DNA of 64,000 nucleotides. It comes from a bacterium. GTDB taxonomy: Bacteria; JADJOY01. The stretch covers positions 214,897 to 278,896 of the forward strand of contig JAXLQJ010000003.1 of assembly GCA_046331705.1 (NCBI GenBank). Reading direction: 5' to 3'. Positions 30,651 through 64,000 of the stretch are shown here, piece by piece. The notes below the pieces were generated by a model that saw only the letters and a program-made list of their open reading frames with translations, had not been told where the DNA came from and made no database searches. Both the position numbers and the translations under genes were made by a program. Every line of letters begins with the position of its first letter. The first letter of the stretch is position 1.

Positions 30651-31750
<1,100 letters not shown>

Positions 31751-31793
31751 GGCCAGAGGCGCTGCGACGGACTCGAGCGGCGCCCCCGGTCCT

Positions 31794-31812
31794 GGTGCAA
31801 TCCACACACCGG
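31794..31812 (-). promoter_or_regulatory. Candidate sigma-54 (-24/-12) promoter for hydrogenase operon
   Basis: Minus-strand reading gives cCGGtgtgtggaTTGCAcc: GG-N10-GC spacing with an exact TTGCA -12 element and a weak -24 element. About 45 nt upstream of hydB ATG. Confidence 0.25.
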
Positions 31813-32129
31813 CACGGGAAGACCGCTGCGGCTCGGCCGCCCGCGACGCGGTCGATCGGATTCCATTCGCGCCCATTCCCTCCGGCTGCGCGCTTCCGCC
31901 CAGACGTCGAGGACGCGACCGCAGGATTCGCTTCGGTGCGTGGGCGAATGCCGCTGGCCCGCCCCGCGCCGGCGCGAGCGCCACCGAACGCCAACGGGAC
32001 CGGGATCACGCGCTCGCGGCGCGCGCGGTCGCGCGAAACCGATAGCCGGATTCCCGGACAGGGTCGGCGACAATTCCGCGGGTGGGTGTCGTTCGCGTGA
32101 GCGGATCGGATCCCTTGGACGGCCAAACA

Positions 32130-34474: not shown

Positions 34475-34511
34475 GCGCAGAGCGCGTGATATCGTACGCC
34501 GCGCTCTGCGC
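34475..34511. promoter_or_regulatory. Perfect 12-bp inverted repeat (GCGCAGAGCGCG-N13-CGCGCTCTGCGC)
   Basis: Lies between the regulator stop (34340) and ATG 34535. The loop contains GATATC. Confidence 0.5.
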
Positions 34512-34534
34512 CCTCACCATCACGAGGTCAGGTC

Positions 34535-44755: not shown

Positions 44756-44941
44756 GCGCCCCTCCCCTTCGATTGTGAGCGGATTCTCGCGACGGTGCGA
44801 CTCGACGATGCTACGCCCCGGTGACGAACGGGGTCAATCCAGCAACCGTCGAGTGGCGCAATTCCGCGGCGGCACGGCCCATCCAACACCAGTTCGAGGG
44901 CCGCGCTTGCCGCGGCGTGCCGCTGTCGTTATTGTAAAAAT

Positions 44942-45424
44942 ATGCAAGAACTGCCAACCCAATGCCCCGCGGAAGCTGCTGGGAAGACCTGCTGCATCGA
45001 GCACTTTCGCGAGACCCTGCAAGTGCTCGGCAAGCGGATGACCGATGAGCGGCGCGTGCTCATGCGGGCCATCTGCTCGATCGAAGGCCATTTTCGACCG
45101 GAAGACCTGGAACAGATCCTGCTAGCGAACGGGTACTCGATCTCGCTGCCGACCATCTACCGGAACCTGCCGGTGCTGATCGAGGCGGGGATCATCCGGC
45201 GCACCGACGCGCAGGACGCGCAAGAGGGAAGCCAGTACGAGCACATCTGGGGTCACGAGCACCACGATCACCTGGTCTGCGTACGTTGCCGAAAGCTCAT
45301 CGAATTCCAGTATCCGGCCATCGACGCACTCCAGGAAGTCGTCGCGCGCGAGCACGGATTCGACCTCATCAACCATCGCCTCGAGCTGCTGGGAGTGTGC
45401 GCCGATTGCCGGGCGGCGATCTGA
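44942..45424 (+). CDS. fur: Fur-family transcriptional regulator
   Basis: FRETLQVLGKRMTDERRVLMRAI DNA-binding N-terminus. HHDHLVCVRCRKL...CADC metal sites. Confidence 0.85.
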   Translation: MQELPTQCPAEAAGKTCCIEHFRETLQVLGKRMTDERRVLMRAICSIEGHFRPEDLEQILLANGYSISLPTIYRNLPVLIEAGIIRRTDAQDAQEGSQYEHIWGHEHHDHLVCVRCRKLIEFQYPAIDALQEVVAREHGFDLINHRLELLGVCADCRAAI

Positions 45425-45458
45425 CGGCGCGGCGTAGGTCCTCGGAAAGGTCTTGAGA

Positions 45459-45716
45459 ATGAGTGTCAAATCGAGTCTCGATGGTCACGCCACCCTCGAT
45501 CAGATCGCTGCCGGGCAGACCGCGATCGTGATCCAGATCGGCGAGTCGAGCGAGGTGCGCGAGCACCTGGCGGCGCGTGGAATCGGGCCGGGCGTACCCG
45601 TAAAAGTCCTCAAGACCGGCGACCCCCTGCTGGTCGCCGTCGACCAATCGCGCTGGGCGATCGGCCGACTCCACGCCCGCGCGGTCGCCGTGGTCCCCGA
45701 CGGACACGAGCCATGA
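45459..45716 (+). CDS. feoA: FeoA family protein
   Basis: SH3-like FeoA (TLDQIAAGQTAIVIQIGESSEVREHLAARGIGPGVPVKVLKTG). GGAAAGG SD 8 nt before ATG 45459. The ORF track starts at an upstream TTG. Confidence 0.8.
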   Translation: MSVKSSLDGHATLDQIAAGQTAIVIQIGESSEVREHLAARGIGPGVPVKVLKTGDPLLVAVDQSRWAIGRLHARAVAVVPDGHEP

Positions 45717-45943
45717 CGCCACTCTCCGAGCTCTCCCCGGGCCAGAGCGGCACCATCGCGGGCTTCCGCGACTACGGCCCCCTCGTCCAGCGGATGATGA
45801 GCCTGGGCGTTTTGGAAGGGAACGAGGTCAAGGTGATCCGCCTCGCTCCTGCCGGCGACCCGATCCAAGTCGAGGTGCTCGGCTACTCGCTCTCGCTCCG
45901 GCGCAGCGAGGCGGCCCTGATCGACATCGAGAACGTGCGATGA
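45713..45943 (+). CDS. feoA: FeoA family protein (second copy)
   Basis: LSELSPGQSGTIAGFRDYGPLVQRMMSLGVLEGNEVKVIRLAPAGDPIQVEV. Overlaps the previous stop. Confidence 0.8.
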   Translation: MTPLSELSPGQSGTIAGFRDYGPLVQRMMSLGVLEGNEVKVIRLAPAGDPIQVEVLGYSLSLRRSEAALIDIENVR

Positions 45944-49821: not shown

Positions 49822-49935
49822 CGTGTCGGGCTCCCTCTATATGAGATAGCACCGCTCGCGCGACGAGCGGTGCCCCTTTCCACCCTCTCGCTCGGCTGCC
49901 AGCGGCGACGCGCGGCGCGCCGCTCGGAGCCTCCG

Positions 49936-50700
49936 ATGCTCGATCCCCGGTTCCGCCTCTTCGCCGAGGAGCTCGCCGAGCTCGCCGGCGACGTCATCCG
50001 CCGCTACTACCGATCGAGCGTCCAGGTACACGAGAAATCCGACGCGACTCCCGTGACGCAGGCCGACCGCGAGGCCGAAGCGGTCATGCGCGATCGGATC
50101 GTGCAGTGCTTTCCCGACCACGGCGTGCTCGGCGAGGAGCACGGCGAGGTCAACCCGGGCGCCGACTATCGCTGGGTCCTCGATCCGGTCGACGGCACCA
50201 AGAGCTTCGTCCTCGGCATCCCGATGTTCGTGACGCTGATCGCGCTGGAATACCGTGGGCAACCGATCCTGGGCGTCATCGACCAACCCGTGCTGCGCGA
50301 ACGGGTGATCGGCGACGGCCGCGAGACGCGGCTCAACGGGCGTCCGGTCCGCGCCCGGCCTTGCGGCGCGCTCGAGAACGCGTATCTCCTCGCGACCGAT
50401 CCGCTGCTCGTCGAGAAGCACTTCGGCACCCGCGGCTTCGACCGTCTCACCCACGCCGTCAAATGCTTCCGCGCCATCGGCGACGGCTACTCCTACGGGC
50501 TGCTCGCTGCAGGCTTCGCCGACGTCGTGCTGGATCCGATCATGAACCCGTGGGACGTGGCGGCGCTGATTCCCGTGGTGCGGGGTGCCGGCGCGGTGAT
50601 CAGCGACTGGCACGGCGACGATCCGGTGGGCAAGGCAAGCACCGTCGCGGCGAGCGCCGCGATCCATCCGCGCGTGATCGAGATCCTGAACCGCCCCTGA
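49936..50700 (+). CDS. Inositol monophosphatase family protein (HisN/SuhB-like)
   Basis: IMPase motifs GEE...WVLDPVDGT and WDVAA. Start at MLDPRF; the listed ORF from 48724 is an antisense extension. Confidence 0.85.
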   Translation: MLDPRFRLFAEELAELAGDVIRRYYRSSVQVHEKSDATPVTQADREAEAVMRDRIVQCFPDHGVLGEEHGEVNPGADYRWVLDPVDGTKSFVLGIPMFVTLIALEYRGQPILGVIDQPVLRERVIGDGRETRLNGRPVRARPCGALENAYLLATDPLLVEKHFGTRGFDRLTHAVKCFRAIGDGYSYGLLAAGFADVVLDPIMNPWDVAALIPVVRGAGAVISDWHGDDPVGKASTVAASAAIHPRVIEILNRP

Positions 50701-50719
50701 CGGGCGCGCGATCCCACGC

Positions 50720-51490
50720 TCAACCTTCCGCGAATCGCGCCGCGACGCTGCGCACCAGCTCGGGAAGGAGCTCGACGCAGTCGCCTTCCAGACGCACCGT
50801 CGCGACGTCGTCGTGCGCCGTCGGACCGCGGTTCACGATCACGTAGGGCGCGCCGCGCCGACGCGCGGCCAACGGCACCAGCGCCGCCGGCTGCACCTCC
50901 AGCGTCGAGCCGACCGCCAGCACCGCGTCGGCTCGCTCGGCGGCGGCGAACGCGCGCTGGGTCTCGCGCTCGGGCATGGATTGCCCGAACGAGATGGTGG
51001 CGCTCTTCACCAAGCCGCCGCAGCCACACCGCGGCGCCCGGCGCGTGCGCCGGAACTCCTCCATCCACGGCCCGGGCTCGCTGCGCGCGCCGCAGCTCAG
51101 GCATTCGATCCAGCGATTGGTGCCGTGGATCTCCACGACGCGATCGCCGCGGCTTCCCGCATCCTGGTGCAGGCCGTCGATGTTCTGCGTCACCAGCAGC
51201 TCCACCCGTCCCTGCCGCTCGAGCTCGACGATCGCGTGATGCGCGGCGTTCGGGCGCGCATCGCGGAACTGGTCCCAGGACTCGAGCTTGAAATCCCAAT
51301 GCTCGGCGCGCGCCTCCTCCGAGGCGAGGAAGTCCTGGAAGTAGACCGGCTTGCGTCGTTTCCACACGCCGTTCGGCCCGCGGAAATCCGCGATGCCGGA
51401 ACCGGTCGAGATTCCCGCGCCGGTGAACACCAAGAGGCGGCGCGCCCGCGCCAGCACGTCCGCTGCACGCTCGAGATCCGAGTCGCTCAT
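50720..51490 (-). CDS. NAD-dependent protein deacylase (SIR2 family)
   Basis: GAGIST..GIADFRG, TQNIDGLH, Zn-ribbon CLSCG...CGCGG. Start trimmed to MSDSDLER. Confidence 0.85.
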   Translation of the reverse strand: MSDSDLERAADVLARARRLLVFTGAGISTGSGIADFRGPNGVWKRRKPVYFQDFLASEEARAEHWDFKLESWDQFRDARPNAAHHAIVELERQGRVELLVTQNIDGLHQDAGSRGDRVVEIHGTNRWIECLSCGARSEPGPWMEEFRRTRRAPRCGCGGLVKSATISFGQSMPERETQRAFAAAERADAVLAVGSTLEVQPAALVPLAARRRGAPYVIVNRGPTAHDDVATVRLEGDCVELLPELVRSVAARFAEG

Positions 51491-51598: not shown

Positions 51599-52549
51599 AT
51601 GAATCGAAACAGCCCGTCCGCCTCGCCCGTCGAGACCCATTACGCCGAGTTCTTCGGCGCCATCGCCGACATGGCGCCAGGGCTTCTGCACCTGCACTAC
51701 GGCGTCTGCGATTCCGCACCCACCACACCGTGGCACGCGTTTCGCGCGCTGGCTCACGGCCCCGCCGCGCTCCTCGACGCCCTCTGGGACGCCGGCGAGG
51801 TGGCGCGGCTGCCGGCGGGAGCGCGCGGCCTCGATCTCGGCTGCGGGTTGGGCGGCACCTCGAGCGAGCTGGCGAGGCGATTCGGCCTGCGCATGGCGGC
51901 GATGGATCGCACGCGCTCGCAAGCGCGCCGCGCCCACCAGCGTCTGCGCCGACTGCCCCACGGCGATCGGGTCGCGGTGGCACAGGCGAGCGGAGTCGCC
52001 CTGCCCTTCGCGTCCCGCGCGTTCCAGCTGGCGGTGACCATCGAGGTGCTCTTCCATGTCGCCGACAAGCCCGCGGTCTTCGCCGAGGTGGCGCGCGTCC
52101 TCGCGCCAGGCGGCTGCTGGCTGATCGTCGACCAGGAGAACCACGATGCCGGCAACGGCCTGAGCGAGCTCTTCCACTTCGCCGAGCGGGGCGACATCGA
52201 GCGCTTGGGCGCCCGCGTCGGCCTCGCGCTCGCGCGCGAGGTGGACCTCTCGCCGGGCGTGGCGCGCTGGATGGGGCTCTACGCCCGCATGGCCGCGCCA
52301 GCGTGGCAAGCGGCGCTGGTGCCGCTGGCGCTGGCGCGCGGTGGCCCGGCGCTGGCTCGGCGATACCTGCGCGGGATCCGCACCTACGAGCAGCTGGTGC
52401 TCGAGAACGCCGCACGCAGTGGGCTCGTCGCCCCCGACGCCAGCGCCCGCGGCGCGATCCGGCGTCTCAGGCTTCACACCCAGCGCTGCCTGGAGGACGG
52501 CAGCGTGGCCTACAAGATCTGGGTGCTGCGCCGGGACGGCGCGAGCTGA
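51599..52549 (+). CDS. Class I SAM-dependent methyltransferase
   Basis: Motif I LDLGCGLGGTS. Start at MNRNSPSAS. Confidence 0.75.
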   Translation: MNRNSPSASPVETHYAEFFGAIADMAPGLLHLHYGVCDSAPTTPWHAFRALAHGPAALLDALWDAGEVARLPAGARGLDLGCGLGGTSSELARRFGLRMAAMDRTRSQARRAHQRLRRLPHGDRVAVAQASGVALPFASRAFQLAVTIEVLFHVADKPAVFAEVARVLAPGGCWLIVDQENHDAGNGLSELFHFAERGDIERLGARVGLALAREVDLSPGVARWMGLYARMAAPAWQAALVPLALARGGPALARRYLRGIRTYEQLVLENAARSGLVAPDASARGAIRRLRLHTQRCLEDGSVAYKIWVLRRDGAS

Positions 52550-52586: not shown

Positions 52587-54275
52587 TCATGCGGCGAGCG
52601 AAGCCGCGCGTGGCGGGGCGCTCGGATAGCGCGCGGCGATCTGGGCCGCGAAGCGCGCGTCGACCCAGCGATGGGCGAGCGCGAACAGTCGGTGCAGGCG
52701 CGGGTGGCTTTCCACCAGATGCTGCTGGTAGGCGAGCAACGGCTCGCGCTCGGAGAGCTCGTACTCGGGCGTGCCGTCGAAGAAGAGCGGCGCCCACAGG
52801 CTCAGTCGCTCGCGCCGTGCGCGGTCGTCGAGGGCCTCGAGGAGGTCCATCGCCTCGCGCGCGTCCATCGTCGCGTGGCGGAAGAACGGCTGGTTGGTGC
52901 GACCATCGTTCCAGTCCTCGAGCGCGAAGCGCGCGCGCGATTCCGGGCTCAGCAGCGGCACGCCCTCCATGCGCGTGTTGAGCAGCGCGAGCAGGTAGAA
53001 ATCGGGGCGCGTGCGCTCCAGAAACCGATACGTCTCCTCGATCGTGGCGCGGGTCTCGCCCGGAAAGCCGAGCACCAGCGTCACGATGGTCGACACGCCG
53101 AGCTCGCGACACGCGAGCAGCGCCTGCGCGTTCTTCTCGACCGTCTGCCGCTTGTTCATCGCGTCGAGGATCGCCTGGCTGCCCGACTCGGCGCCGATGT
53201 GGACCTGCGCCAGCCCCGCGTCGCGCATCCGCGGCAGCAGATCGTCCGTCACGAGGTCGTCGCCGCGCGCGTAGCAGATCCATCGCACGCGCAACCGGCG
53301 GCGCTCGATCTCGTCGCAGAGCTCGCGAATCCGCGAGCGCGGCACGGTGAAGAGCGAATCGAAGCAGCTCACCACCTCGACACCGAGCTCCTTCACGTAG
53401 CGTTCCCATTCGTCGGCGATGCGCTTGGCGCTCTTGATCCGAAACGACGTGTCGTCGAACAGGAACGGGAAGTTGCAGAACTCGCACCGATACGGGCAGC
53501 CGCGCACCGATTCGTAGCGAACCATCCGCAGCCGCCGCCCGCCGCGCCGTGCCCACCCGGCCCAGTCGGCGCTGGGCAGCGCGTCGAGGCTTCGTCCTTC
53601 CGGTCGGTGCGCGCGCACCACCAGGCAGCCAGCGCGCGATTCCACCGCATACGCTTCGGAGGGCGGGAACGCGCGGTAGCCCGAGCGAATCCACGCCGCC
53701 AGCGCGGGCACCAGGACCTCTCCGTACCCCACCGCGAGCACGTCGACTCCGGCCAGCGGCTGCCAGCGGCCGTGCAGCAACCCCACGAGCGCGCCGCCCA
53801 GCACCACGCGCACGCCCGGTCGCGCCACCAGCCGCACCAGGGGCTCGAGCTCGCTCAGATCGCGAATGAGCGTGGTCGAGACGAGCACGCAAGCGTGCTC
53901 GGCCAGCAACCGCTCGCGGGTGTCCGCGTTCGCGAAGAGCTCGCTCAGCGTGACGCTGGTGGTCGCGAGTCCCTCGGCCTCGAGAAGCCCGGCGAGCACG
54001 ACCTCGGTGAGCGTCGGCGTCTCGGCCTCCAGGCGCTTGGCGAAGAATCGTTCCACGTCCGGGCACCACGCGGCGTCGCGCGGCAGCGCGCGCTGCGCGA
54101 GCGCGTGCGTCAGGAAGAGCTCGATGGGCGTGAGCTTGACCTTGAGGTCGAGCAGGCTGCGCGAGCTCGCGACGTATTGCGCGCGCTGCTTGCGGAGCTC
54201 GGCCCACACCGACGCGTGCGATCCCGCGATCAGCGAGCCGGTCACCAGCAGCACGCGTTGGTCCCGAGCGGTCAT
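52587..54275 (-). CDS. B12-binding domain radical SAM protein (class B rSAM), 562 aa
   Basis: N-terminal B12-binding-like Rossmann region. CPYRCEFCN (CxxxCxxC) radical SAM cluster. The listed ORF continues upstream (to 55061) only as an out-of-frame read-through over the ABC ATPase gene. Start set at MTARDQRVLL (ATG 54275). Confidence 0.85.
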   Translation of the reverse strand: MTARDQRVLLVTGSLIAGSHASVWAELRKQRAQYVASSRSLLDLKVKLTPIELFLTHALAQRALPRDAAWCPDVERFFAKRLEAETPTLTEVVLAGLLEAEGLATTSVTLSELFANADTRERLLAEHACVLVSTTLIRDLSELEPLVRLVARPGVRVVLGGALVGLLHGRWQPLAGVDVLAVGYGEVLVPALAAWIRSGYRAFPPSEAYAVESRAGCLVVRAHRPEGRSLDALPSADWAGWARRGGRRLRMVRYESVRGCPYRCEFCNFPFLFDDTSFRIKSAKRIADEWERYVKELGVEVVSCFDSLFTVPRSRIRELCDEIERRRLRVRWICYARGDDLVTDDLLPRMRDAGLAQVHIGAESGSQAILDAMNKRQTVEKNAQALLACRELGVSTIVTLVLGFPGETRATIEETYRFLERTRPDFYLLALLNTRMEGVPLLSPESRARFALEDWNDGRTNQPFFRHATMDAREAMDLLEALDDRARRERLSLWAPLFFDGTPEYELSEREPLLAYQQHLVESHPRLHRLFALAHRWVDARFAAQIAARYPSAPPRAASLAA

Positions 54276-54304
54276 GGCGTGGTCCGGGCCGCGGATGGCG
54301 GTGG

Positions 54305-55002
54305 TCAGGACGCCTGCGGTCCCGACACCAGGCGGCCGTCGGAGAGAACGTAGCGAGTGGAAGTGCGCTCGACCACACGCGGATCGTGGGTGGCGACGAG
54401 GAACGTGGTGCCGTGGCGCTGGTTGAGGGCCGCCATGGTGTCGAGCAACGCCAAGCCGGTGGTGTGGTCGAGATTCGCCGTGGGCTCGTCGCCGAGGACG
54501 ATCGGCGGCTCCTTCACCAGCGCCCGCGCCACCGCGACGCGCTGCTGCTCGCCTCCCGAGAGCTCCGTCGGTCGCGCCGCCGCTCGATGCGCGACGCCCA
54601 GCTCGTCGAGCCAGCGCCGCGCGCGCTCGGCGCGCTCCCGCGACGCGATCCCGAGGAGCGCCAGCGGCAGCTCGACGTTCTCCTGCGCGGTCAGCACGTC
54701 GATGAGGTTGTAGCTCTGGAAGACGAAGCCGATGGAACGCTTGCGGAACAGGGCGCGCGCCGCTGCGCCGAGCGCCGAGACCTCCGCGCTTCCGACCCGC
54801 ACCGAGCCGGCGTCCGGCCGATCGAGCCCGCCGATCAGGTTGAGCAACGTCGTCTTGCCCGAGCCCGAGGGCCCGACCAGCGCCGCGAACGAGCCTGGCT
54901 CCACCGCGAAGCTCACGTCGTCGACCACGCGTGCGCCGCCGTAGCTCCGCACCACGCCGCGAACCTCGATTCTCGCGCTCCGTCCGCCGTCGCTCACGTG
55001 CA
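54305..55002 (-). CDS. ABC transporter ATP-binding protein (LolD/MacB-type)
   Basis: Walker A GPSGSGKTT, signature LSGGEQQRVAVARAL, Walker B IVLGDEPTANLD, H-loop ATHD. Confidence 0.9.
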
Positions 55003-55017
55003 TCCTCCTTCGCGTCG

Positions 55018-56280
55018 TCAGCGATGGCGCAGCGCCGCGACCGGCTCGAGACGCCACGCACGCCACGCCGGCAGCACCGCCGCGATCAGGCCCGCACCGA
55101 GCACCACCGACGCGGCGATCACCACCTGACTCGCCTCGAAGCGCCCGCGCACCCCATCGCCGATCGAGAAGCCGCCCACCGAGAACGCCGCCGCGGCGTC
55201 GAGGCCGGGGATGCCGGCGCGCGTGAGATGGATGGCCACCGCGGCGCCGAGCACCGCACCCATCAGCACGCCGATCCCCAGCAGCCACGCCGCCTGCGCG
55301 AGCACCAGACCCACGAGCGCGCGCGGGCTCGCGCCGAGAGCTCCCACCGTGCCCAGATCGCGCAGCCGTTCCTCGAGGCCGAGCCACAGGATGTCGGCGA
55401 CCGCGAGCGCCACCAACAGCACCTCCAGCACCAGGAAGACCCGGTACACCGCGACGTTCACGTTGACGTAGTCGACGATCGCCGGCGACACGGAGGTCCA
55501 CGGCTCCGCGAAGAGCGCGGGCGTGCCGGGAAGCCCTGCACCGACTCGCGATACCGCTGCGGGTAGGTGCTCGAGCGAGCGTTCGGCGGGCGGCAACGCC
55601 AGCGCCACCTCGTGGACCAAGCCGTGCGCGTCGAGCAGGGTCTCGGCGAGTCCGCGCGGCGCGAGCACCACGAACGCCTCGACGTCGCGGGAGGCCGCGC
55701 GGAAAAGACCCGCGACCCGCGCTCGCGCTCCGCGCGGCAAGCCGAAGCGATCCCTGGCGACCAGCTCCAGCAGGTCGCCGGGATGCAAGCCCAAGGCTTC
55801 CGCCTGGACGGAGCTGAGCAGCACCGGCGCGGGTTCGTCGCCGCCCGCTGGCGCGCGCTCGAGCGCATCGAGCTCCGCCACGTCGGGCGAGAGCCGCGCC
55901 TCGGCGGCGGCGTCGATGCCGTAGAGAAACGCAGCGCGCTCCGAGCCCTCGGCGCCAACCAGCACCGGCACGATCACGCGCGTGGTGACGCGCGCGCCAC
56001 TTCCGAGCGTGGCGGCGAGCCGAGCCAGCGCAGGCTCGGGATCGAAGACGTCGGCGGTGCGGCGCGACGCGACGTCGCGACTCGAGGTGATGATCACGTC
56101 GCCGAGCAGCGTGCCGGTGGCCCGATCGAAGAGATACTCGGCGAACCCCGCGAGCGCGGCGAGCACGATCGCCACCACCGCGGTGCCGATCGCCACCGAG
56201 GCGATCGCCAGGCAGGCGCGCTTCGGCCGGCCCCACACCAGCCGCCACGCGAGCCCCAGCAACGCCGTCGCCTCCGTCAT
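55018..56280 (-). CDS. ABC transporter permease, FtsX/LolC/E-like
   Basis: 420 aa. N-terminal TM helix, large periplasmic loop, C-terminal three-TM FtsX domain. Start MTEATALL; the listed ORF to 57468 is an antisense extension. Confidence 0.8.
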   Translation of the reverse strand: MTEATALLGLAWRLVWGRPKRACLAIASVAIGTAVVAIVLAALAGFAEYLFDRATGTLLGDVIITSSRDVASRRTADVFDPEPALARLAATLGSGARVTTRVIVPVLVGAEGSERAAFLYGIDAAAEARLSPDVAELDALERAPAGGDEPAPVLLSSVQAEALGLHPGDLLELVARDRFGLPRGARARVAGLFRAASRDVEAFVVLAPRGLAETLLDAHGLVHEVALALPPAERSLEHLPAAVSRVGAGLPGTPALFAEPWTSVSPAIVDYVNVNVAVYRVFLVLEVLLVALAVADILWLGLEERLRDLGTVGALGASPRALVGLVLAQAAWLLGIGVLMGAVLGAAVAIHLTRAGIPGLDAAAAFSVGGFSIGDGVRGRFEASQVVIAASVVLGAGLIAAVLPAWRAWRLEPVAALRHR

Positions 56281-57539
56281 GCCGCGCGCAACGCTTCCAC
56301 CGGATCGAGGGTCGCGATGCGGCGCGCCGGCCACCATCCCGCAGCCGGCCCGACCACCAGCGCGAGCACCGTGCCGAGCGCGACCTCGGCGGGGCCGATG
56401 TAGGCACGGATGATCGGCGGCATCACCTGCCCCGCGACCTCGAGCGTCTTGGCGGACGCCGAGAAGTCGAGGCCATGGTGCGCGAGAAACCACGAGACCG
56501 GCACGCTCAGCACGATCCCGGCGAGCGCACCGAGCGCACTCGTGATCCACGCCTCGAGCTGGATCAGCCAATCGAGATCGCGCGGCTCGAGGCCGAGCGC
56601 GGTGAGCACGCCCAGCTCGCGGGTTCGATCGATGATACCGAGCACGAAGGTGTTCGCGACCCCGATGGTCTGCACGATCACCAGGATCGCCACCAGCAGA
56701 TACACCGCGCGCCGCTGGACCTCGGTGATCCCTTCGACGTCGGGCGCGGTGTCTCGCCACGACACCACGGTGAGCGACGCATCGCGAAGCGCGCCCTTCA
56801 CCAGCGACAACCGCCCCAGCACCTCCTCGGCGGAGAGCGCTCGGTCGAGCTCGATGCCCCACGCGGTCACGCACCGTTCGCCGACGAGCGCTTGCAGGTC
56901 CTCGAGCGCGAGCGCCACGGTGAAACGATCGCCGGGTCCGCCGTCGCCGCGCGCTGCCGGCGCCAGCGTCGCCGCCACGGCGATCTCTCCGCCGCGCGCA
57001 TCGCGAAGCCGGAGGCGCGTCCGGCCACCGCGATCCACACCCAGCCGCGCCGCCAGCTCCGGTGAGACACGGCCTGCGACCGCGGCGGGCCGCGCTGCAG
57101 CGCCGCTCGCGGGCGTGGCGCGGAACCCGACGCGCGTCGCCTCCAGCCGAACCGGCGCCTGATCGCGCGGGCCCTCCACCAGCGCGGGCCATTCCAGGAT
57201 CGCCGTCCAGCGCGCGCCGAAGCTCGCCGCCCGCGTCGCATCGAGGGGTGCTGGCTCCTCGGGAAAGCGCAAGCGCGGATCTCGGGAGCGATGGTGCCCC
57301 GGCCGTTCGACTCGCCCGAGCCCGTGGGCGGCATCGCTGGTCAAGCCGAGCAAGGTCTCGTGGCTCCAGCGCTGCAAGCCGAGCGAGAGCGCCACCGCCA
57401 CCACGCCGAGCGCGTTGGCGACGACCAGCACTCCCGTCCGGCGCCGGTGCGCGAGCACGCCGCGCCACGCCACGCCAGCGAGCGCGGCGAACGGCAGCCG
57501 GCGCACGCGGACCGTCTCGTCAGAGGTAGCGACGGACAT
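56277..57539 (-). CDS. ABC transporter permease, FtsX/LolC/E-like (second)
   Basis: 420 aa with the same architecture. ATGA overlap with the downstream permease. Confidence 0.8.
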   Translation of the reverse strand: MSVATSDETVRVRRLPFAALAGVAWRGVLAHRRRTGVLVVANALGVVAVALSLGLQRWSHETLLGLTSDAAHGLGRVERPGHHRSRDPRLRFPEEPAPLDATRAASFGARWTAILEWPALVEGPRDQAPVRLEATRVGFRATPASGAAARPAAVAGRVSPELAARLGVDRGGRTRLRLRDARGGEIAVAATLAPAARGDGGPGDRFTVALALEDLQALVGERCVTAWGIELDRALSAEEVLGRLSLVKGALRDASLTVVSWRDTAPDVEGITEVQRRAVYLLVAILVIVQTIGVANTFVLGIIDRTRELGVLTALGLEPRDLDWLIQLEAWITSALGALAGIVLSVPVSWFLAHHGLDFSASAKTLEVAGQVMPPIIRAYIGPAEVALGTVLALVVGPAAGWWPARRIATLDPVEALRAA

Positions 57540-58128
57540 GCCGGCGATATTCCTCGTGCGCCGCGCCGAAGCGCGCCGCCAGCGAACGATCCTCCTCGGC
57601 AGCGAGCTGGTGGAATCCCGCGACCAGCAGCAGCACGCAGAGCGCGCACGCGAGGCTCGGATTCCAGAGCCATTCGCCGAGCAGGAACACGATGGAGCTC
57701 ACGTAGACGGGATGGCGCGAGCGGGCGAAGGGGCCGCGAGTCACGAGGTCGACGGGCGCGAGCGGGCCAGTTTCCTCCAGGCCGACGCGCAACGCACGCC
57801 CCATCGCGAGCTGCGATCCGACCATGCCGAGATGGCCGACCACGGCGATCGCCCATCCCACTGCCGCCGGCGGGGCGACCAGGGGACGGCCGAGCGGCGA
57901 GGCCCCAAACGCCGGGCTCGTGAAATGGGCGACCACCGCGCTCGCCCATGCGAGCGAGACCACGCCCATCGCGGCCTGGATCCGGCGGTGGCGCGAGGCC
58001 CGCGGCCGGCGCCACCGCGCGTGCGGAAACGCGCCGAAGCGCAGTCGGTACACCAGGCTCGTGCCGAGAAATCCGGCGAACACGTGCCAGACGACGAACG
58101 CCAGCTCGAGGCGCGCGAGAAGGTCCAT
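57520..58128 (-). CDS. Isoprenylcysteine carboxyl methyltransferase (ICMT)/phospholipid methyltransferase family membrane protein
   Basis: Multi-TM. C-terminal RHPVYVSSIVFLLGEWLW...EE..L...FG..Y..Y motif typical of the ICMT/PEMT family. Start MDLLARLE (ATG 58128). 3' end overlaps the permease start by 20 nt. Confidence 0.7.
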   Translation of the reverse strand: MDLLARLELAFVVWHVFAGFLGTSLVYRLRFGAFPHARWRRPRASRHRRIQAAMGVVSLAWASAVVAHFTSPAFGASPLGRPLVAPPAAVGWAIAVVGHLGMVGSQLAMGRALRVGLEETGPLAPVDLVTRGPFARSRHPVYVSSIVFLLGEWLWNPSLACALCVLLLVAGFHQLAAEEDRSLAARFGAAHEEYRRHVRRYL

Positions 58129-58318
58129 GCCGGTCGTGAGGGGCCCGCCGCAACGCCACCGCAGGCCCGCGCAAGGATGGGGGATCGACGTCGGGGTCTC
58201 AAGCGATCCCACCGCACACCGTCACGCGCGCCGAAGACGACGTGGCGTTGGCGAGCGCTCACGGCGCGGGGTACCATCGACCGGTCGACCCTCGCTCGGG
58301 TCGGCGAAGGGAGATTCG

Positions 58319-59671
58319 ATGCGTCTCGCCCTGATCTCGCCGAAAGGACCGCTCTACCGGCACCGCGGCGGCATCTTCAAGAAGTCGTTGCGCTACGCGC
58401 CGTTGACGCTGGTCACGCTGTCGGCGCTCGTGCCCGACGACGTCTCCGCGGAGATCACGATCATCGACGAAGGCATCGAGGACGTTCCGCTCGATCTCGA
58501 GGCGGACCTCATCGGCATGACCGTGATCACGGGCTCGTCGCCGCGCGCCTACGAGCTGGCCGACCATTTCCGCGGCCGCGGCATCCCGGTGGTGCTGGGC
58601 GGCCCGCACGTGACGCTCGTCCCCGAGGACGCGGAGCCGCACGCGGACGCGATCGTCACCGGCTACGCCGAGGACACCTGGCCCCAGCTGCTGCGCGACT
58701 TCGCCGCCGGGCGGATGGCGCCGCGATACACGCAAGCGGCGGACTTCCAGCTCACCCACGAGAACCTGCGCTTCCCGCGACGCGAGCTGCACAAGAGCAA
58801 GAACTACATCACCACCGCCGTGGTCGAGGCCACCCGCGGCTGCATCCACGACTGCGATTTCTGCGTGGTCCCCTCGGCGTGGGGCCGCCGCCCCTTCGAG
58901 AAGCCCGTCGAGCACGTCGTCGAGGACGTGCGGCGCACCCGCGCCCGCCACGTGATCTTCATCGACCTCAACCTCATCTCGCATCCCGATTACGCGAAGG
59001 AGCTCTTCGCGGCGCTGATCCCGCTCGGCATCCGCTGGTACGGCCTGTCGACGACGCGCATCACGCGCGACCCGGAGTTGCTCGACCTCACGGTCCGCAG
59101 CGGTTGCAGGGGGCTCTTGCTCGGCTTCGAGACGCTCTCCCACGACAACCTGCGCTCGAGCAAGAAGGGCTTCAACGACCCGCGGAACTACAAGGACATC
59201 GTGAAGAAGCTCCACGAGCGCGGCATCTCGATCAACGGCACGTTCGTGTTCGGGCTGGACGAGGATACGCCCGAGATCTTCCAGCGCACGGCGGAGTTCG
59301 TGATCGACGCCGCGATCGACCTGCCGCGCTTCGCCGTCGCCACGCCATTCCCGGGCACCACGCTCTTCAAGCGCTTGGAGGCGGAGGGGCGGATCCTGAC
59401 CCGCGACTTCAGCCTCTACGACGGCCAGCACGTCGTGTTCCAGCCCGCGCGCATGACTCCCGAGCAGCTCATCGAGGGTCATACCGAGGTCTGGAAGCGG
59501 GTCTACAGCGTGAGCTCGATCGCGCGGCGGATCGCGTCGTCGCGGGTACAGATACCGCTCTCGATCGCGGCGAACTGGGGCTATCGCTTCTACGGCCAGA
59601 ACCTGCATCGCTATTACAACTGCGACTGGTTCGTCGGACGCGAGCGGGGCGCCGAGCGCATGGCCGCTTGA
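58319..59671 (+). CDS. B12-binding domain radical SAM protein with DUF4070-like C-terminus, 450 aa
   Basis: B12-binding-like N-terminus (IGMTVITGSS). CIHDCDFCV radical SAM motif. C-terminal ...YYNCDW region. SD GAAGGGAG before ATG 58319. Confidence 0.85.
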   Translation: MRLALISPKGPLYRHRGGIFKKSLRYAPLTLVTLSALVPDDVSAEITIIDEGIEDVPLDLEADLIGMTVITGSSPRAYELADHFRGRGIPVVLGGPHVTLVPEDAEPHADAIVTGYAEDTWPQLLRDFAAGRMAPRYTQAADFQLTHENLRFPRRELHKSKNYITTAVVEATRGCIHDCDFCVVPSAWGRRPFEKPVEHVVEDVRRTRARHVIFIDLNLISHPDYAKELFAALIPLGIRWYGLSTTRITRDPELLDLTVRSGCRGLLLGFETLSHDNLRSSKKGFNDPRNYKDIVKKLHERGISINGTFVFGLDEDTPEIFQRTAEFVIDAAIDLPRFAVATPFPGTTLFKRLEAEGRILTRDFSLYDGQHVVFQPARMTPEQLIEGHTEVWKRVYSVSSIARRIASSRVQIPLSIAANWGYRFYGQNLHRYYNCDWFVGRERGAERMAA

Positions 59672-59871
59672 ACGGTCGGCGCGGGATGGTGCCGGACACC
59701 CGGCCGGACACCCGGCGGCGGTCCGCGCGCAGCGCCGCGCTCGCGCCGCCGCGCGATGCCCCGCAATCCCGACGCGAATCTCGACCCCGAGTCGACGCTC
59801 GCCCAGCGAACGCCGACGCCCGTGGCTGCCGCCCGCCAGCGACGCACCTCGACTGATCGCCATCCGCGCCC

Positions 59872-60864
59872 GTGTCCTCGTCCTCATTCTCGATTCCGCC
59901 CGCGAGCGACGGAGCCCTCGCTCGCGCCACCACGCGGGTTCCGCCGCGACGGTTCGCGGACCCGGAGGTCGTGGTCCAGTCCTGGTACGTCGCCGCACGC
60001 TCGCGCGCGCTGCGGGTCGGCGCCGTCGCGCGCAGCAATCCGTGCGGCCGGCCGCTGGTGCTGTGGCGCGGCGTCGACGGCCAGGTGCGGGCTGCGGACG
60101 CGCACTGCCCACACCTGGGTGCGCACCTCGGGCACGGCTCGGTGACGGGCAACGATCTCGTCTGCGCGCTTCACCACTTCCGGTTTCGCGACGACGGCGT
60201 GCTGGTGGAGGCGCCCGCGCTCACGGTGCGACCGAATTGCCGCCTGCGGACGTATCCGACCACCGAGCGCTGGGGCTTCGTCTGGATCTGGCACGGACCG
60301 GAAGCGCTCCATCCGCTGCCCGGCCCCGCCGAGACGGAACGGCTGCGGACGCTGGTGCTGCCCCCGCAGCGCTTCACGTGTCACCACCACCTGATCGCGG
60401 TCAACGCGTGCGACACGCTTCACCTCGGCCCGTTGCACGGCCTCGAGCTCGCGACGCCGCCCGAGGTATCCATCGCCGATGCTCATCGCGCCGAGATGCG
60501 CCTCGTCGGGCGCTTCACCGCGGCGTGGAAACGCAAGCTCACCGGCGGTGACTCGGCAGACTTCGACGCACGCTTCGTGGTCAGCGGCGGCAACATTTGC
60601 TGGGTGAGCGTGGCGGCTCCCGTGCCGTTCCAGGTGCTGTTCGCCGGCAGGCCCGAGGGTCCGGGGCGCTCGCGCACCCAGTCGTTCGTGTTCTTCCCGC
60701 CGGGCAGCGTACGCCGCGCGCCGTCGATCCTCGGCCTCTTGGTGTTGTTGCTGCGGCGCGATCACCAGCTCCTCGAGGATCTGGCGTTCCGGCGCGGATT
60801 CACCAGCGGCGACCGAATCTTGGAAGCATTCGTCCGACACATCGACGCCATGCCGGTGGGATGA
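59872..60864 (+). CDS. Rieske [2Fe-2S] domain protein (ring-hydroxylating oxygenase alpha-like)
   Basis: Rieske motif CPHLGAHLG...CALHHF (CxH-x16-CxxH). The listed GTG start at 59872 may be slightly upstream of the true start. Confidence 0.75.
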   Translation: MSSSSFSIPPASDGALARATTRVPPRRFADPEVVVQSWYVAARSRALRVGAVARSNPCGRPLVLWRGVDGQVRAADAHCPHLGAHLGHGSVTGNDLVCALHHFRFRDDGVLVEAPALTVRPNCRLRTYPTTERWGFVWIWHGPEALHPLPGPAETERLRTLVLPPQRFTCHHHLIAVNACDTLHLGPLHGLELATPPEVSIADAHRAEMRLVGRFTAAWKRKLTGGDSADFDARFVVSGGNICWVSVAAPVPFQVLFAGRPEGPGRSRTQSFVFFPPGSVRRAPSILGLLVLLLRRDHQLLEDLAFRRGFTSGDRILEAFVRHIDAMPVG

Positions 60865-60967
60865 AGCGGCGCGTCGCAACCTGCCACACACGCGTTGCGT
60901 CGCGACACGAGGCTGCAACACCGATCCGCCCGAGCCGGGGGGCGTCCGCGTCGCGCCCGTCCACAGC

Positions 60968-60990
60968 TCTGAAATCACGAGACTTTTCAG
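60968..60990. promoter_or_regulatory. AT-rich inverted repeat CTGAAATCACGAGACTTTTCAG
   Basis: A 6-7-bp AT-rich palindrome in a 72%-GC genome. About 135 nt upstream of the small ORF at 61126. Confidence 0.4.
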
Positions 60991-61125
60991 CGTGTCGGAT
61001 CGGCAGCCCACGCGCAGCCGTTGGCCCGTCGTTTGCTCTACCGCTCTCCCGGATCCTCCCTGCGATCCCAGGCGCGCTCGCGGCGCTTCCTTCGAGGAGC
61101 GACGCCGACGCGCCGGAGAGAAGCC

Positions 61126-61311
61126 ATGTACCGAGTCGAGCTGATCGACGGACGTGTCGAATGGATGGACGCGGACGCCGTCGCCCACTACGCGGGCATC
61201 ATCAAGGCGTTCGTCCTCGACGAGCCCACCGACTTCGAGGGCGAGCTCGACAGGCTGTTCGCCGAGATCGAACCCCGGACGGCCGCACGAACCAGCGCGC
61301 GCGCGTCCTGA
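61126..61311 (+). CDS. Hypothetical small acidic protein (61 aa)
   Basis: ATG preceded by GGAGAG at -11. MYRVELIDGRVEWMDADAVAHYAGIIKAFVLDEPTDFEGELDRLFAEIEPRTAARTSARAS. High GC3. Confidence 0.5.
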   Translation: MYRVELIDGRVEWMDADAVAHYAGIIKAFVLDEPTDFEGELDRLFAEIEPRTAARTSARAS

Positions 61312-61440
61312 GCAGCACCCGCCGCCGCGTGCGTGCAGCACGGTGCGCGCGCGCCACCGGTATCGTCGGCGTTCGTGCATTGCTGAGCGCGCGAACGAAT
61401 TCGCGCTAGGATCACCGCCCCTCGCTCCTTCGAGGTCGCG

Positions 61441-64000
61441 GTGAAACGAAGCGCGCGCACGCTGGTCTTGTTCACGGGTCTCGTCGTCTGCGGGTCGGTG
61501 CCCGCGGCGGCCTTCGAGATCGCGTCCCAGTCGCATCACTTGGATCGGTTCCGGCTCGAGCCCGCCGAGCCGCTGGTGATCCGCTTCGATCGCTCGCTCG
61601 CACGCGCGTCGGTGGCGAGCGACTCGATTCGGATCCTCTGCACCGATCGCTCCGGGGTGGTACGCGTCGCCGGCACCACCACGCTCGACTCGACCACCGC
61701 CGTCGACGACACGCTGCGCTTCGCGCCGAGCGGAGGTGGCTTCGCGTTCGGGCGGCCACACCGCATCGTTCTCGCGCCCGAGCTGCGCGGAGCCGACGGA
61801 TCCGTGCTCACGGGGGCGCTCCCCCGCGGCGACGTGTTCGTGCCGAACAAGCCGAGCAACCTCTCGGAAGAGCTGCTCGAGGTCTCGAGCGCGCTCATTG
61901 GCTACGACGTGAAGAGCCCCGAGAAGACCGACCCGAACGATCCGCTGCAGATCCCGGGCATCTCCACCACCGAGGCCTGGAAGCGCTCGATCGGCCGTCC
62001 CGACGTGCTGATCGCGGTGCTGGACGACGGGCTCGAGAGTTACGGCTCGCGCTCGTTGCGCGAAAGCCTCTTCCTGAATCGCGGCGAGCTGCCACTGCCG
62101 GCGAACGCCAGCGACTACGACGCGAATCACGACGGCCGATTCAACGCCGACGACTACGCCGGCGACCCGCGCGTCGGCGATCACGACCACGACGGGCGCC
62201 CCGACGCCGAGGACCTCATGACGGCCTTCTCGGACGGCGTCGACGACGACGGCAACGGGCTCGTGGACGACGTGAGCGGCTGGGACTTCTTCCGCAATCG
62301 TCCGCGGGCGCTCGGCGTCCGCGAGTTCCCGGAGGGCACGCACGGTCAGGGACGCGCCGAAGAAGCGGTCGGCGCGCCTGGCGACACCGGTGCCGTGCCG
62401 GGCGGATGCCCGGATTGCTCGCTGCTGATGGTGCGCGTGAGCGACACGATCCTGGTGGAGGGAAATCTGTTCGCGGCCGGCCTGCGCTACGCCACGGCCA
62501 TGGGTGCGCGCGTGGTGCTGGCGGCCGTGGGCGGCGTCGACAATCCGCGGGCGCTCGCCGAGGCCGTGCAGGCGGCGAACGACGCGGGAATGCTGCTGGT
62601 GGTCGCGTCGGGCGACGAGCTGAGCTTCCACCACAACTACCCGGCGGCGTTGCCGGGCACCTATCAGGTGAAGTCGATCTTTCCGCTCCCGTTCGGCGCC
62701 CCACATTACGTGGAGACCTACTGCACGAACTGGGGCGCGCACATGGACGCGGCGGTGAGCTCCAGCAATTGCAGCTCGGAAGCCACCGGCAACACCGTGG
62801 GGCTCTTCGGCGCGCTGCTGTCGCGGGCGCGCGACTTGGGGATCGAGCTCTCGGGCGGCGAGCTGCGGCAGATCCTGAACGGGACCGCCGACGACATCGC
62901 GTCGTCGTGCGTCTCGCTGACCGGCTCGTCCTGCCAGCCCGGCTTCGACGCGCATTTCGGCTACGGTCGCCCGAACGGCCGGCGTGCGATGGACGTCTTG
63001 GGCGATCCGACGCGAGCCGAGCCCGCGCGGATCCCCCCGGCCGTCGAGATTCAGGCACCCGGCTGGTTCGACATCGTCGATCCGCGCGCACGCCCGTCGC
63101 TCGACGTGAGCGGCACGATCGCGGCGCGCGGCCGACCCTTCGACTACGCGCTGGAGGCGGCCACGGGTGTCGAGCCTCGCGACGAGCAGTTCCGCGTGTT
63201 CGCGTCGGGGTCGGGACGCGATGCGTTCGACGGCACCTTCGGCAGCATCGATCTCGCGGCGCTCTTCGGCGGTGCGCCGCCCACGGGCGCGGTGGCGAAG
63301 CCGGACGATCCCACGGTCACGCTCCGCGTCCGGGTCACGGCCGGTGATGGGACGCGGGGCGAGATTCGGCGCGCCGTCGGCGTGCACTCGGACCCCGACG
63401 CGTTGCCGTCGTTTCCCAAGAGCCTCGGCAGCTCCGGCGAGTCGTCGGCCTTGCTGGTGGACCTGGGCGGTGGTCCGCCGGGGCAACTCGACCTGGTGCT
63501 CGCCACCAGCGACGGCTTGGTTCACGCGTTTCGGCGCGATTCGAGCGGTGCCGGATGGAACGAGGCCACGGGCTTTCCCGTCTCGCTTCCGGCGGCGATC
63601 GAAGGCGGCATCACCGACGGCGCGATCGCGTCCGCGGCCTACGGCGATCTCTACGGCGACGGCACGGGCTACGCGATCGTGGTCGCGACGGTGAGCGGCC
63701 GGATCTACGCCATCCACCCGCGCGGCGCCGCGCACCTCGACGCGGCGGGAAAGCCGAGCCCGTTCCTGCCGGGCTTCCCGGTGGAGGCGCTGGCGGGCGA
63801 TCGCTCGAGCTCGCGCGCCTATGCGCACGGCACCGCCTTCATCGCGACGCCCACGCTCGCCGATCTCGACGGCGACGGCTCGCTCGAGATCATCGCCGCG
63901 AGCTTCGACCAGCGGCTCTACGCGTTCCATCCGCGCGACGGCGACGGGGACGGCCGCGCGGACCCCGCCACCGGCTTCCCCGTGCTGCTGCGCAGCGATG
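61441..64000 (+). CDS. Secreted S8-family (subtilisin-like) peptidase, divergent, partial (3' end beyond window)
   Basis: GTG start after an in-frame stop at 61384. Signal peptide VKRSARTLVLFTGLVVCGSVPAAAFE. S8-like motifs IAVLDDGL (Asp), EGTHGQG (His), CSSEATGNTVGLFGALL (Ser region). The frame stays open for more than 2.5 kb to the window end. The C-terminal region is rich in GDG/FG-GAP-like repeats. Confidence 0.6.
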   Translation, partial: MKRSARTLVLFTGLVVCGSVPAAAFEIASQSHHLDRFRLEPAEPLVIRFDRSLARASVASDSIRILCTDRSGVVRVAGTTTLDSTTAVDDTLRFAPSGGGFAFGRPHRIVLAPELRGADGSVLTGALPRGDVFVPNKPSNLSEELLEVSSALIGYDVKSPEKTDPNDPLQIPGISTTEAWKRSIGRPDVLIAVLDDGLESYGSRSLRESLFLNRGELPLPANASDYDANHDGRFNADDYAGDPRVGDHDHDGRPDAEDLMTAFSDGVDDDGNGLVDDVSGWDFFRNRPRALGVREFPEGTHGQGRAEEAVGAPGDTGAVPGGCPDCSLLMVRVSDTILVEGNLFAAGLRYATAMGARVVLAAVGGVDNPRALAEAVQAANDAGMLLVVASGDELSFHHNYPAALPGTYQVKSIFPLPFGAPHYVETYCTNWGAHMDAAVSSSNCSSEATGNTVGLFGALLSRARDLGIELSGGELRQILNGTADDIASSCVSLTGSSCQPGFDAHFGYGRPNGRRAMDVLGDPTRAEPARIPPAVEIQAPGWFDIVDPRARPSLDVSGTIAARGRPFDYALEAATGVEPRDEQFRVFASGSGRDAFDGTFGSIDLAALFGGAPPTGAVAKPDDPTVTLRVRVTAGDGTRGEIRRAVGVHSDPDALPSFPKSLGSSGESSALLVDLGGGPPGQLDLVLATSDGLVHAFRRDSSGAGWNEATGFPVSLPAAIEGGITDGAIASAAYGDLYGDGTGYAIVVATVSGRIYAIHPRGAAHLDAAGKPSPFLPGFPVEALAGDRSSSRAYAHGTAFIATPTLADLDGDGSLEIIAASFDQRLYAFHPRDGDGDGRADPATGFPVLLRSD

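Follow-up and report, generated by a model that had tools for sequence, protein, structure and literature searches.

A 64,000-nucleotide (nt) stretch of bacterial DNA (assembly GCA_046331705.1, contig JAXLQJ010000003.1, forward-strand positions 214,897 to 278,896; hereafter the window) was found to carry an accessory gene island at about 51.6–60.9 kb, in which a putative class B (cobalamin-dependent) radical S-adenosylmethionine (rSAM) tailoring cluster is joined to a predicted type VII ATP-binding cassette (ABC) transporter. The two radical-SAM genes of the island, rSAM1 and rSAM2, and its Rieske oxygenase gene recur together across about ten phyla in a widespread, uncharacterised cluster, and the link to the transporter was observed in a single shallow clade. 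Our favoured reading, to which we assign a probability of roughly 0.5, is that the island is a slimmed-down, exporter-coupled, lineage-specific form of an unnamed pathway for the methylation and oxygenation of a probably lipid-like substrate associated with the membrane.

The G+C content of the window is approximately 70%, and mechanical lists of its open reading frames (ORFs) are therefore rich in spurious frames. The gene model for 51.6–64.0 kb was built from frame profiles of G+C at third codon positions (GC3) together with start-site inspection and was checked by Pfam and NCBIfam scans, with family membership judged by Pfam gathering scores and NCBIfam curated cut-offs (in bits). Every gene listed below was confirmed by GC3 frame analysis and by these scans, and the gene inventory and positions given in an initial annotation of this DNA were right. 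L-numbers and P-numbers are locus and protein labels of this analysis.

51599–52549, plus strand: MT1, class I methyltransferase, 316 amino acids (aa); Methyltransf_11, 61.6 bits
52587–54275, minus strand: rSAM1, predicted class B radical SAM enzyme, 562 aa; CPYRCEFC motif; Radical_SAM 86.5 bits, B12-binding 37.4 bits (cut-off 32.1)
54305–55003, minus strand: ABC ATPase of FtsE/LolD/MacB type, about 232 aa (start uncertain); ABC_tran, 119 bits
55018–56280, minus strand: permease b (FtsX_b), 420 aa; Pfam FtsX, 37.8 bits
56277–57539, minus strand: permease a (FtsX_a), 420 aa; Pfam FtsX, 58.2 bits
57520–58128, minus strand: PEMT-family membrane methyltransferase, 202 aa; Pfam PEMT, 32.1 bits
58129–58318, no strand: divergent intergenic region between the PEMT operon and rSAM2; conserved promoter-like TTGGCG-N18-TACCAT
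58319–59671, plus strand: rSAM2, predicted class B radical SAM enzyme with a DUF4070 tail, 450 aa; CIHDCDFC motif; B12-binding 45.5 bits, Radical_SAM 68.3 bits, DUF4070 28.5 bits (cut-off 22)
59872–60864, plus strand: Rieske oxygenase, predicted alpha-subunit type, about 330 aa (start uncertain); Pfam Rieske, 59.4 bits
61126–61311, plus strand: orf61, 61-aa protein; a real gene by conservation
61441 onwards, past the window end, plus strand: S8 peptidase, 1331 aa in full, with FG-GAP repeats

PEMT is the first and rSAM1 the last gene of an operon-like block on the minus strand, and MT1 is convergent with rSAM1. Within the block, PEMT and permease a overlap by 20 nt and the two permease genes by an ATGA (4 nt), and the gaps from permease b to the ATPase gene and from the ATPase gene to rSAM1 are 14 and 29 nt, confirming the tight co-directional order (methyltransferase, permease, permease, ATPase, rSAM1) that had been described earlier. 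The likely PEMT start is the ATG at 58128, which gives 202 aa and is the same as the NCBI call, and the 20-nt overlap is kept in relatives; PEMT is predicted to be translationally coupled to permease a. The NCBI calls for this metagenome-assembled genome (MFN7950876-884) likewise contain the 202-aa methyltransferase and the 61-aa ORF, and the names that they give are all generic.

An rSAM1 locus scan with one genome per species yielded 80 loci, five close (L003–L007) and 75 distant. These loci belong to Acidobacteriota, Gemmatimonadota, Planctomycetota, Bacteroidota, Bdellovibrionota, Burkholderiales, Gammaproteobacteria, Elusimicrobiota, Calditrichia, Spirochaetota and Myxococcota, and the cultured carriers among them include Massilia glaciei (B448-2), Marivirga aurantiaca (S37H4) and Parachitinimonas caeni. 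The near relatives of rSAM1 are seven proteins at 76–99% identity, followed by hundreds of full-length relatives at 35–50% in about ten phyla. All window proteins were searched against the 80 loci by tblastn, and all locus ORFs were clustered and their representatives domain-scanned; ORF clusters c16, c20–c22, c24, c25, c28 and c29 were alternative-frame artefacts of high-GC genes and were discarded. The results showed that rSAM2 orthologues (55–63% identity) and Rieske homologues (26–42%) recur near rSAM1 in distant loci. Neighbours were counted in the 46 distant loci with at least 8 kb on both sides of rSAM1. A GH3-like amide synthetase was present in 34 of the 46, as was a GNAT-like protein of about 377 aa; fatty-acid (FA)-desaturase-family enzymes (27/46), Rieske proteins (25/46), a third B12/DUF4070 radical SAM enzyme (19/46), rSAM2 (17/46), cytochrome P450 (16/46) and PAP2 proteins (15/46) were also counted. 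Rarer neighbours were DUF4440/SnoaL-like proteins, an AurF-like di-iron oxygenase, a hexapeptide transferase and FG-GAP/ASPIC proteins with an RnfD-like membrane domain. The three core genes, which might have been taken for an orphan novelty, are thus members of a conserved cluster; literature searches found no description of this GH3-GNAT-rSAM cluster.

The typical gene order in Gemmatimonadota is GH3, GNAT, rSAM3 and rSAM2 on one strand and, divergently, rSAM1 and Rieske on the other, and the PEMT-FtsX-FtsX-ABC block of the window sits exactly in this rSAM2/rSAM1 junction. A related cluster was found by tblastn of plasmids on the mobilisable IncFIB/IncFII plasmid of Citrobacter portucalensis 64A:C (L090, NZ_CP134684.1, 52126–63512), in the order GH3, rSAM2 orthologue (57%), third rSAM, GNAT, rSAM, rSAM, PAP2, DUF4440-like, rSAM and FA desaturase. 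With five radical-SAM genes but without rSAM1, it is the only cluster of its kind in PLSDB and was not present in complete Escherichia coli genomes; no rSAM1 orthologue was detected in the plasmid search. The wider cluster is horizontally mobile. No transporter family occurs in more than 6 distant loci, suggesting that the product of the wider cluster normally stays in the cell. As further observations on these loci, an rSAM1-family protein is fused with a PAP2 domain in P0093 (786 aa) and with a cytochrome P450 in P0096 (817 aa), the end of the P450 gene and the start of rSAM1 lie no more than a few bases apart in 23 loci, and a protein of about 925 aa that joins, in an unusual combination, an RnfD/NqrB-like polytopic membrane region to FG-GAP repeats and an ASPIC/UnbV domain is frequent (for example L064, 4325–7102; L033, 4342–7119).

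The transporter showed a different distribution. Among the 80 loci, MT1, both permeases, PEMT and orf61 were found solely in the five close lineages, and the coupling of rSAM and exporter was confined to lineages whose rSAM1 identity is 75% or more. Across the distant loci, tblastn detected no FtsX, PEMT or MT1 gene, and a weak ABC-ATPase match (33–46% identity) was obtained in 5 of the 75, at 8–10 kb from rSAM1. MT1 adjoins rSAM1 in close relatives only (70–82% identity). The permeases have no orthologues outside the clade: permease a has just five relatives, at 61–100% identity, and the next match is 30% identical. A metagenome scan with the permease alignment recovered one locus, of the same lineage as L006, and no new lineages. 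Inside the clade, the overlaps and short gaps were kept in all five lineages over 61–88% protein identity. Conservation of the coupling of rSAM and exporter beyond a small clade was therefore not borne out, in view of the 75 distant loci and of one close lineage without the ATPase gene; as to synteny in general, the exporter, both methyltransferases, orf61 and the S8 peptidase scatter, whereas rSAM1, rSAM2 and Rieske stay linked.

The island itself behaves as a block indel. In L087/L088, which represent a more distant relative, the genes for inositol monophosphatase (61–65% identical to the window gene at 49870–50700), orf61 and the S8 peptidase (55%) follow one another with nothing between, and the SIR2-to-Rieske stretch of about 10.4 kb is therefore an indel relative to that backbone. 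In L001 (13511–15315), two extra genes, encoding a 126-aa protein and a 475-aa PQQ_2 protein, lie between SIR2 and inositol monophosphatase (compare window 50700–50720), which marks the left flank of the island as a variable spot.

Both rSAM1 and rSAM2 combine the CxxxCxxC cluster motif of the radical-SAM barrel with an N-terminal B12-binding Rossmann domain and can be assigned to class B by both features; they share 23% identity over the core and are distant paralogues. The best NCBIfam match of rSAM1 was PhpK (154 bits against a cut-off of 600), followed by BchE (108/481), the ladderane-associated TIGR04072 (103/360), HpnJ (99/578) and HpnR (57/650), and it reached 110 bits on the model of the ribosomally synthesised and post-translationally modified peptide (RiPP) enzyme ApyD (cut-off 750). 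For rSAM2, HpnJ (85/578), BchE (85/481) and HpnR (68/650) were matched. The expectation that the two enzymes lie outside the characterised HpnR, BchE, HpnJ, PhpK and ladderane-associated families thus held, all of these scores being below the cut-offs. An AlphaFold2 (AF2) model of rSAM1 (predicted local distance difference test score (pLDDT) 85.5) had TsrM, TokK, MgmA, AprD4, OxsB and CysS as its top folds; the look-alikes are mostly methyltransferases (TsrM, TokK, MgmA and CysS), and these fold matches place rSAM1 in class B while naming no substrate.

rSAM2 comprises B12-binding, Radical_SAM and DUF4070 domains (PF02310, PF04055, PF13282), all above the gathering score, and rSAM1 lacks DUF4070. 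The DUF4070 tail had been recognised in the initial annotation under PF13311; the tail stands, whereas the correct identifier is PF13282. By its domains, rSAM2 has the "HpnP-like" architecture in the sense of Hoshino et al., which consists of these three domains and covers several clades that are uncharacterised and have no known function (Hoshino et al. 2023, PMC10697835). The third rSAM of the wider cluster has the same three-domain architecture. In contrast to HpnP, rSAM2 has no hopanoid genes nearby, and in the wider cluster it is accompanied by GH3, GNAT and oxygenases.

In the Rieske protein, the cluster motif CPH...CALHH (CxH...CxxH) occurs together with DTLHLGPLH, a D-x2-H-x4-H mononuclear-iron motif, and the protein is therefore a complete alpha-type Rieske non-haem-iron monooxygenase. 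Its nearest relatives are SxtT/SxtDIOX, KshA and DdmC, and its best NCBIfam match, the sterol C4-methyl oxidase SdmA, gave 59 bits against a cut-off of 600. For the membrane methyltransferase, previously labelled ICMT/PEMT, the PEMT half of the label was retained (PF04191, 32.1 bits against 25) and the ICMT half was not (PF04140, 19.7 against 24), which points to the PEMT family. MT1 matched Methyltransf_11/25/23 in Pfam, and the relatives of solved structure closest to it are MitM, sarcosine/dimethylglycine methyltransferase and phosphoethanolamine N-methyltransferases.

The transporter consists of two different permeases and one ATPase with no membrane-fusion protein gene, a LolCDE-like content. 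In each permease, one plus three hydrophobic segments flank a loop of about 230 aa that is presumably periplasmic. Permease b gave full-length but weak alignments to LolF and LolE chains; permeases a and b are divergent paralogues that share 33% identity over the last 119 residues only. Modelling of permease a with AF2 from five sequences gave a pLDDT of 43.8, a value too low for use. In NCBIfam, the ATPase scored 202 bits on LolD (cut-off 308), 191 on DevA (296), 184.6 on DarD (375) and similarly, below cut-off, on FtsE, and the lolCE model gave 73.9 bits for permease b and 49.6 for permease a (cut-off 362). LolCDE identity at equivalog level was rejected on these scores, and the MacB_PCD domain (PF12704), for which the initial annotation had suggested a search, had no Pfam match in either permease. 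Taken together, the sequence features are those expected of a type VII ABC transporter of LolCDE-like architecture.

Comparison with known systems showed partial likeness in each case. With the lipoprotein-release transporter LolCDE (and the homodimeric LolDF) the transporter shares two FtsX permeases of about 420 aa with one plus three transmembrane segments and a large loop, one ATPase and no fusion protein, and LolD and lolCE are the best NCBIfam matches of its genes. It differs from LolCDE in scores far under the equivalog cut-offs and an undetected MacB_PCD, and in genes that lie in an accessory island beside methyltransferases and radical SAM enzymes, with an ATPase gene that is dispensable at the locus in one lineage. 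As in the darobactin cluster darABCDE, a radical SAM gene is co-directional with an ABC ATPase gene and an FtsX permease gene, and the ATPase matches DarD; here, however, the DarD score falls short of its cut-off, there is no precursor gene, two permeases are present without a membrane-fusion component, and the window enzymes are class B cobalamin enzymes rather than SPASM-type. The DevBCA glycolipid exporter and MacAB-TolC are likewise type VII ABC systems, which take lipids or amphiphiles from the periplasmic side, and the ATPase scores on DevA, although below the cut-off; they differ from the present system, which has no fusion-protein gene and has permeases that are separate from the ATPase and occur as two paralogues. 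The order FtsX-FtsX-ABC is generic, as L085 has the same order beside a LolA-like TP_0789 protein.

A further comparison concerns GH3. The bacterial GH3 enzyme OlsH makes N-acyl-ornithine, and its operon also encodes the N-methyltransferase OlsG, a relative of the phospholipid N-methyltransferases (PMC12493201, PMC12971839). Like the OlsH-OlsG-OlsI operon of Singulisphaera acidiphila (PMC12493201), the wider cluster is built around a GH3-family enzyme, and the PEMT-family enzyme of the window resembles the phospholipid-methyltransferase family of OlsG. In contrast, no OlsI-type hydrolase is present here, the window has no GH3, and the Ols pathway has no radical-SAM enzymes. The GH3 of the wider cluster scored 27.7 bits on the OlsH model (cut-off 620) and was rejected as an OlsH orthologue.

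In the favoured reading, the island core (rSAM1, rSAM2 and Rieske) would have been reduced from a mobile tailoring cluster centred on GH3 and GNAT, and only this lineage would have added PEMT, MT1 and a type VII ABC transporter with two permeases and one ATPase. The substrate would be a membrane-associated amphiphile, most likely an N-acyl-amino-acid or related lipid. Both cobalamin enzymes may C-methylate it at unactivated carbons, the Rieske oxygenase may hydroxylate it, and the PEMT-type and class I enzymes may N- or O-methylate it; the transporter would then pull it from the inner membrane, driven by ATP, and pass it to the outer membrane or the outside. Gene identities, operon-like spacing and linkages are observed, whereas we infer the methyl-transfer chemistry, the lipid substrate and the export role. 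A lipid-like substrate is favoured because the core partners are membrane-embedded or lipid-directed (the FA-desaturase family, PAP2, which is sometimes fused to rSAM1, and GH3), and because the OlsH precedent is matched in the window by a PEMT coupled to a Lol-like permease pair. The lipid-type reading is also the better of the two that had been offered initially, the other being a RiPP system.

Several points weigh against this reading. Class B radical SAM enzymes include some, such as AprD4, OxsB and BchE, that are not methylases. Radical-SAM and Rieske enzymes work in the cytoplasm, whereas a type VII ABC transporter acts on the periplasmic side, and an additional flipping step would therefore be needed. 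The resemblance of rSAM1 to ApyD, and of the cluster P450 to ApyO (136 bits against a cut-off of 525), is at superfamily level and is to RiPP enzymes, and the substrate may be something other than a lipid. No GH3, GNAT, third rSAM, desaturase, PAP2 or P450 gene was detected in the 64-kb window (tblastn, 1e-6), and no GH3 or GNAT gene was found within 10 kb in the 80%-identity relative; the scaffold-building enzyme is missing in the window, and the island may act on another substrate than the wider cluster does. The housekeeping flanks of the close lineages are equally syntenic (SIR2, inositol monophosphatase, DUF362, FeoB), and with about five close lineages in one shallow clade, shared ancestry alone could explain the link between transporter and rSAM. 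Finally, the L001/L002 lineage (the 80% relative) has no ATPase gene between permease b and rSAM1, as two independent assemblies show (L001, ~9955–10001; L002, ~1871–1917). Both permease genes remain at these sites; in L002, permease a is cut by the contig end and permease b is an intact 418-aa ORF.

Among the rival explanations, the PEMT-FtsX-FtsX-ABC genes may be an unrelated efflux, resistance or Lol-like module at a variable hotspot, co-transcribed with rSAM1 by accident, a reading that we regard as rather doubtful. It draws on the position of the block exactly in a junction where rSAM2 and rSAM1 are immediate divergent neighbours elsewhere (for example in Gemmatimonadota), on the 75 distant loci, which have no FtsX, PEMT or MT1 homologue beside rSAM1 and no adjacent FtsX/ABC transporter, on the ATPase gene absent in one close lineage, on the variability of the region (extra genes in L001, no island in L087/L088) and on the generic gene order seen in L085. 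It is countered by the 4-nt and 20-nt overlaps and 14–29-nt gaps that continue up to rSAM1 with no terminator-like site between the genes, by the retention of this arrangement in all five lineages, and by permeases without orthologues outside the clade, which fit an island-specialised module and not a roving resistance cassette. A secreted non-lipid small molecule or peptide, following a darobactin-like logic with its scaffold or precursor encoded elsewhere in the genome, would accommodate the matches of the ATPase to DarD (184.6 bits), of rSAM1 to ApyD (110 bits) and of the wider-cluster P450 to ApyO (136 bits). It would also suit MT1, whose solved relatives MitM and sarcosine/dimethylglycine methyltransferase act on small molecules, and GH3 enzymes also conjugate small aromatic acids. 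This explanation is unlikely, given that the three scores are far under their cut-offs (375, 750 and 525), that no credible small ORF was found in the intergenic regions of the island, that Pfam and NCBIfam scans returned no RiPP recognition element (RRE), SPASM or leader-peptidase domain, and that the wider cluster has many membrane-embedded enzymes and no conserved exporter.

Two more specific products were also weighed. Hopanoid or sterol tailoring would make rSAM2 an HpnP/HpnR-like C-methylase and the Rieske protein an SdmA/KshA-like oxidase, with the transporter delivering to the outer membrane. Myxobacterial "HpnP-like" homologues without squalene cyclase exist (PMC10697835), which lends this idea some colour, as do SdmA as the best NCBIfam match of the Rieske protein and KshA among its nearest solved relatives. 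We nevertheless consider it very improbable: the scores of rSAM2 on HpnR and HpnJ and of the Rieske protein on SdmA lie far from their cut-offs (68/650, 85/578 and 59/600), a scan of 30 window proteins revealed no cyclase or isoprenoid gene, the genes that recur as partners encode GH3, GNAT, PAP2 and desaturases rather than terpenoid enzymes, and the related cluster lies on a plasmid of Citrobacter, a host not known for hopanoids or sterols. The other proposal, from the initial annotation, was a RiPP system with orf61 as the precursor, leader removal by the S8 peptidase and export of the product through the FtsX-ABC transporter. In its favour, orf61 is a genuine gene, since its first ~50 codons are kept relative to the 80%-identity relative with mostly synonymous changes while the flanking intergenic DNA is not conserved; it is preceded by a Shine-Dalgarno sequence, lies 262 nt downstream of the Rieske gene and joins a conserved N-terminal region of about 50 residues to a variable tail. 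However, orf61 and the S8 peptidase stand beside inositol monophosphatase without the rSAM island in L087/L088, orf61 has a different downstream neighbour in L086, and the S8/FG-GAP family (~1340 aa) is widespread with unrelated neighbours elsewhere, so that both genes belong to the backbone and are not components of the system. An exhaustive phmmer search of 1.8 billion representatives returned four genuine relatives of orf61, and tblastn placed none near rSAM1 in the 75 distant loci. The family pattern, MYRVELIDGR...Y.G.IKAFVLD followed by a variable acidic or Ala-rich tail, contains no cysteine. The RiPP proposal has accordingly become hardly credible.

Returning to the lipid-type reading, a broader version can be put forward tentatively, and we think it possible though less than likely. 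The wider cluster would represent an unrecognised, multi-phylum mobile pathway in which GH3 and GNAT build an N-acyl-amino-acid-type lipid that up to five cobalamin radical SAM enzymes and several oxygenases C-methylate and oxygenate; "HpnP-like" clades would thereby gain a non-hopanoid substrate, and the window would hold a derived version with its own LolCDE-like machine to the outer membrane. Cobalamin radical-SAM enzymes methylate unactivated carbons, and for most of their clades no substrate is known. Of greater interest than the island itself is the wider GH3-GNAT-rSAM cluster: rSAM2-type proteins have a conserved non-terpenoid gene context, and cultured and plasmid-borne carriers make the question directly testable. 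"HpnP-like" proteins, their substrate being unknown, complicate the reading of 2-methylhopanes as biomarkers (PMC10697835). If the exporter link is true, a Lol-like type VII ABC transporter would be dedicated to a tailored lipid and not to lipoproteins; if it is mere juxtaposition, the window itself is nothing unusual and it is the wider cluster that matters.

Regulatory elements and other features of the window were also examined. The sequence TTGGCG-N18-TACCAT (58245–58275), about 50 nt upstream of the rSAM2 ATG, is kept across four aligned relatives and may be the rSAM2 promoter; it was not flagged by the generic sigma-70 consensus scan. That scan and a terminator scan of 51–64 kb gave counts equal to the shuffled expectation, a repeat search of the same region gave GC-rich noise only, and an Rfam scan of the window returned no cobalamin riboswitch and no other family. 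A known anti-phage defence system was rejected as a candidate, as PADLOC gave just generic methyltransferase, rSAM and ATPase domain matches. Regarding the surroundings of the S8 peptidase, DnaB and ribosomal proteins lie beyond it in the 80% relative, orf61 is directly upstream of an S8/FG-GAP peptidase in two lineages (the window clade and L087/L088), and an S8 homologue of 43% identity is located beside a dcw/ftsZ cluster.

The rest of the window encodes pyruvate:ferredoxin oxidoreductase (PFOR), sensor kinases, sigma-54 activators, a NiFe hydrogenase with HypF, FeoAB and similar proteins. The NiFe-hydrogenase genes at 24688–32005 (minus strand) comprise a HypF carbamoyltransferase, a fragment of a large subunit that includes a HycI-like protease domain, and a 4Fe-4S protein; they are flanked by sigma-54 activators and sensor kinases and are unrelated to the island. 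An ORF of 981 aa at 34490–37435 (plus strand) has a GC3 of 0.90, a strong coding signal, and no Pfam domain at E ≤ 1e-4. At 42152–48183, a second, different S8 peptidase, with a fervidolysin-like prodomain, TIG and MopE-type metal-binding repeats, adjoins feoB. This synteny is kept in relatives, and the matching region of L001 (the 80% relative) adds feoA and a Fur-family gene.

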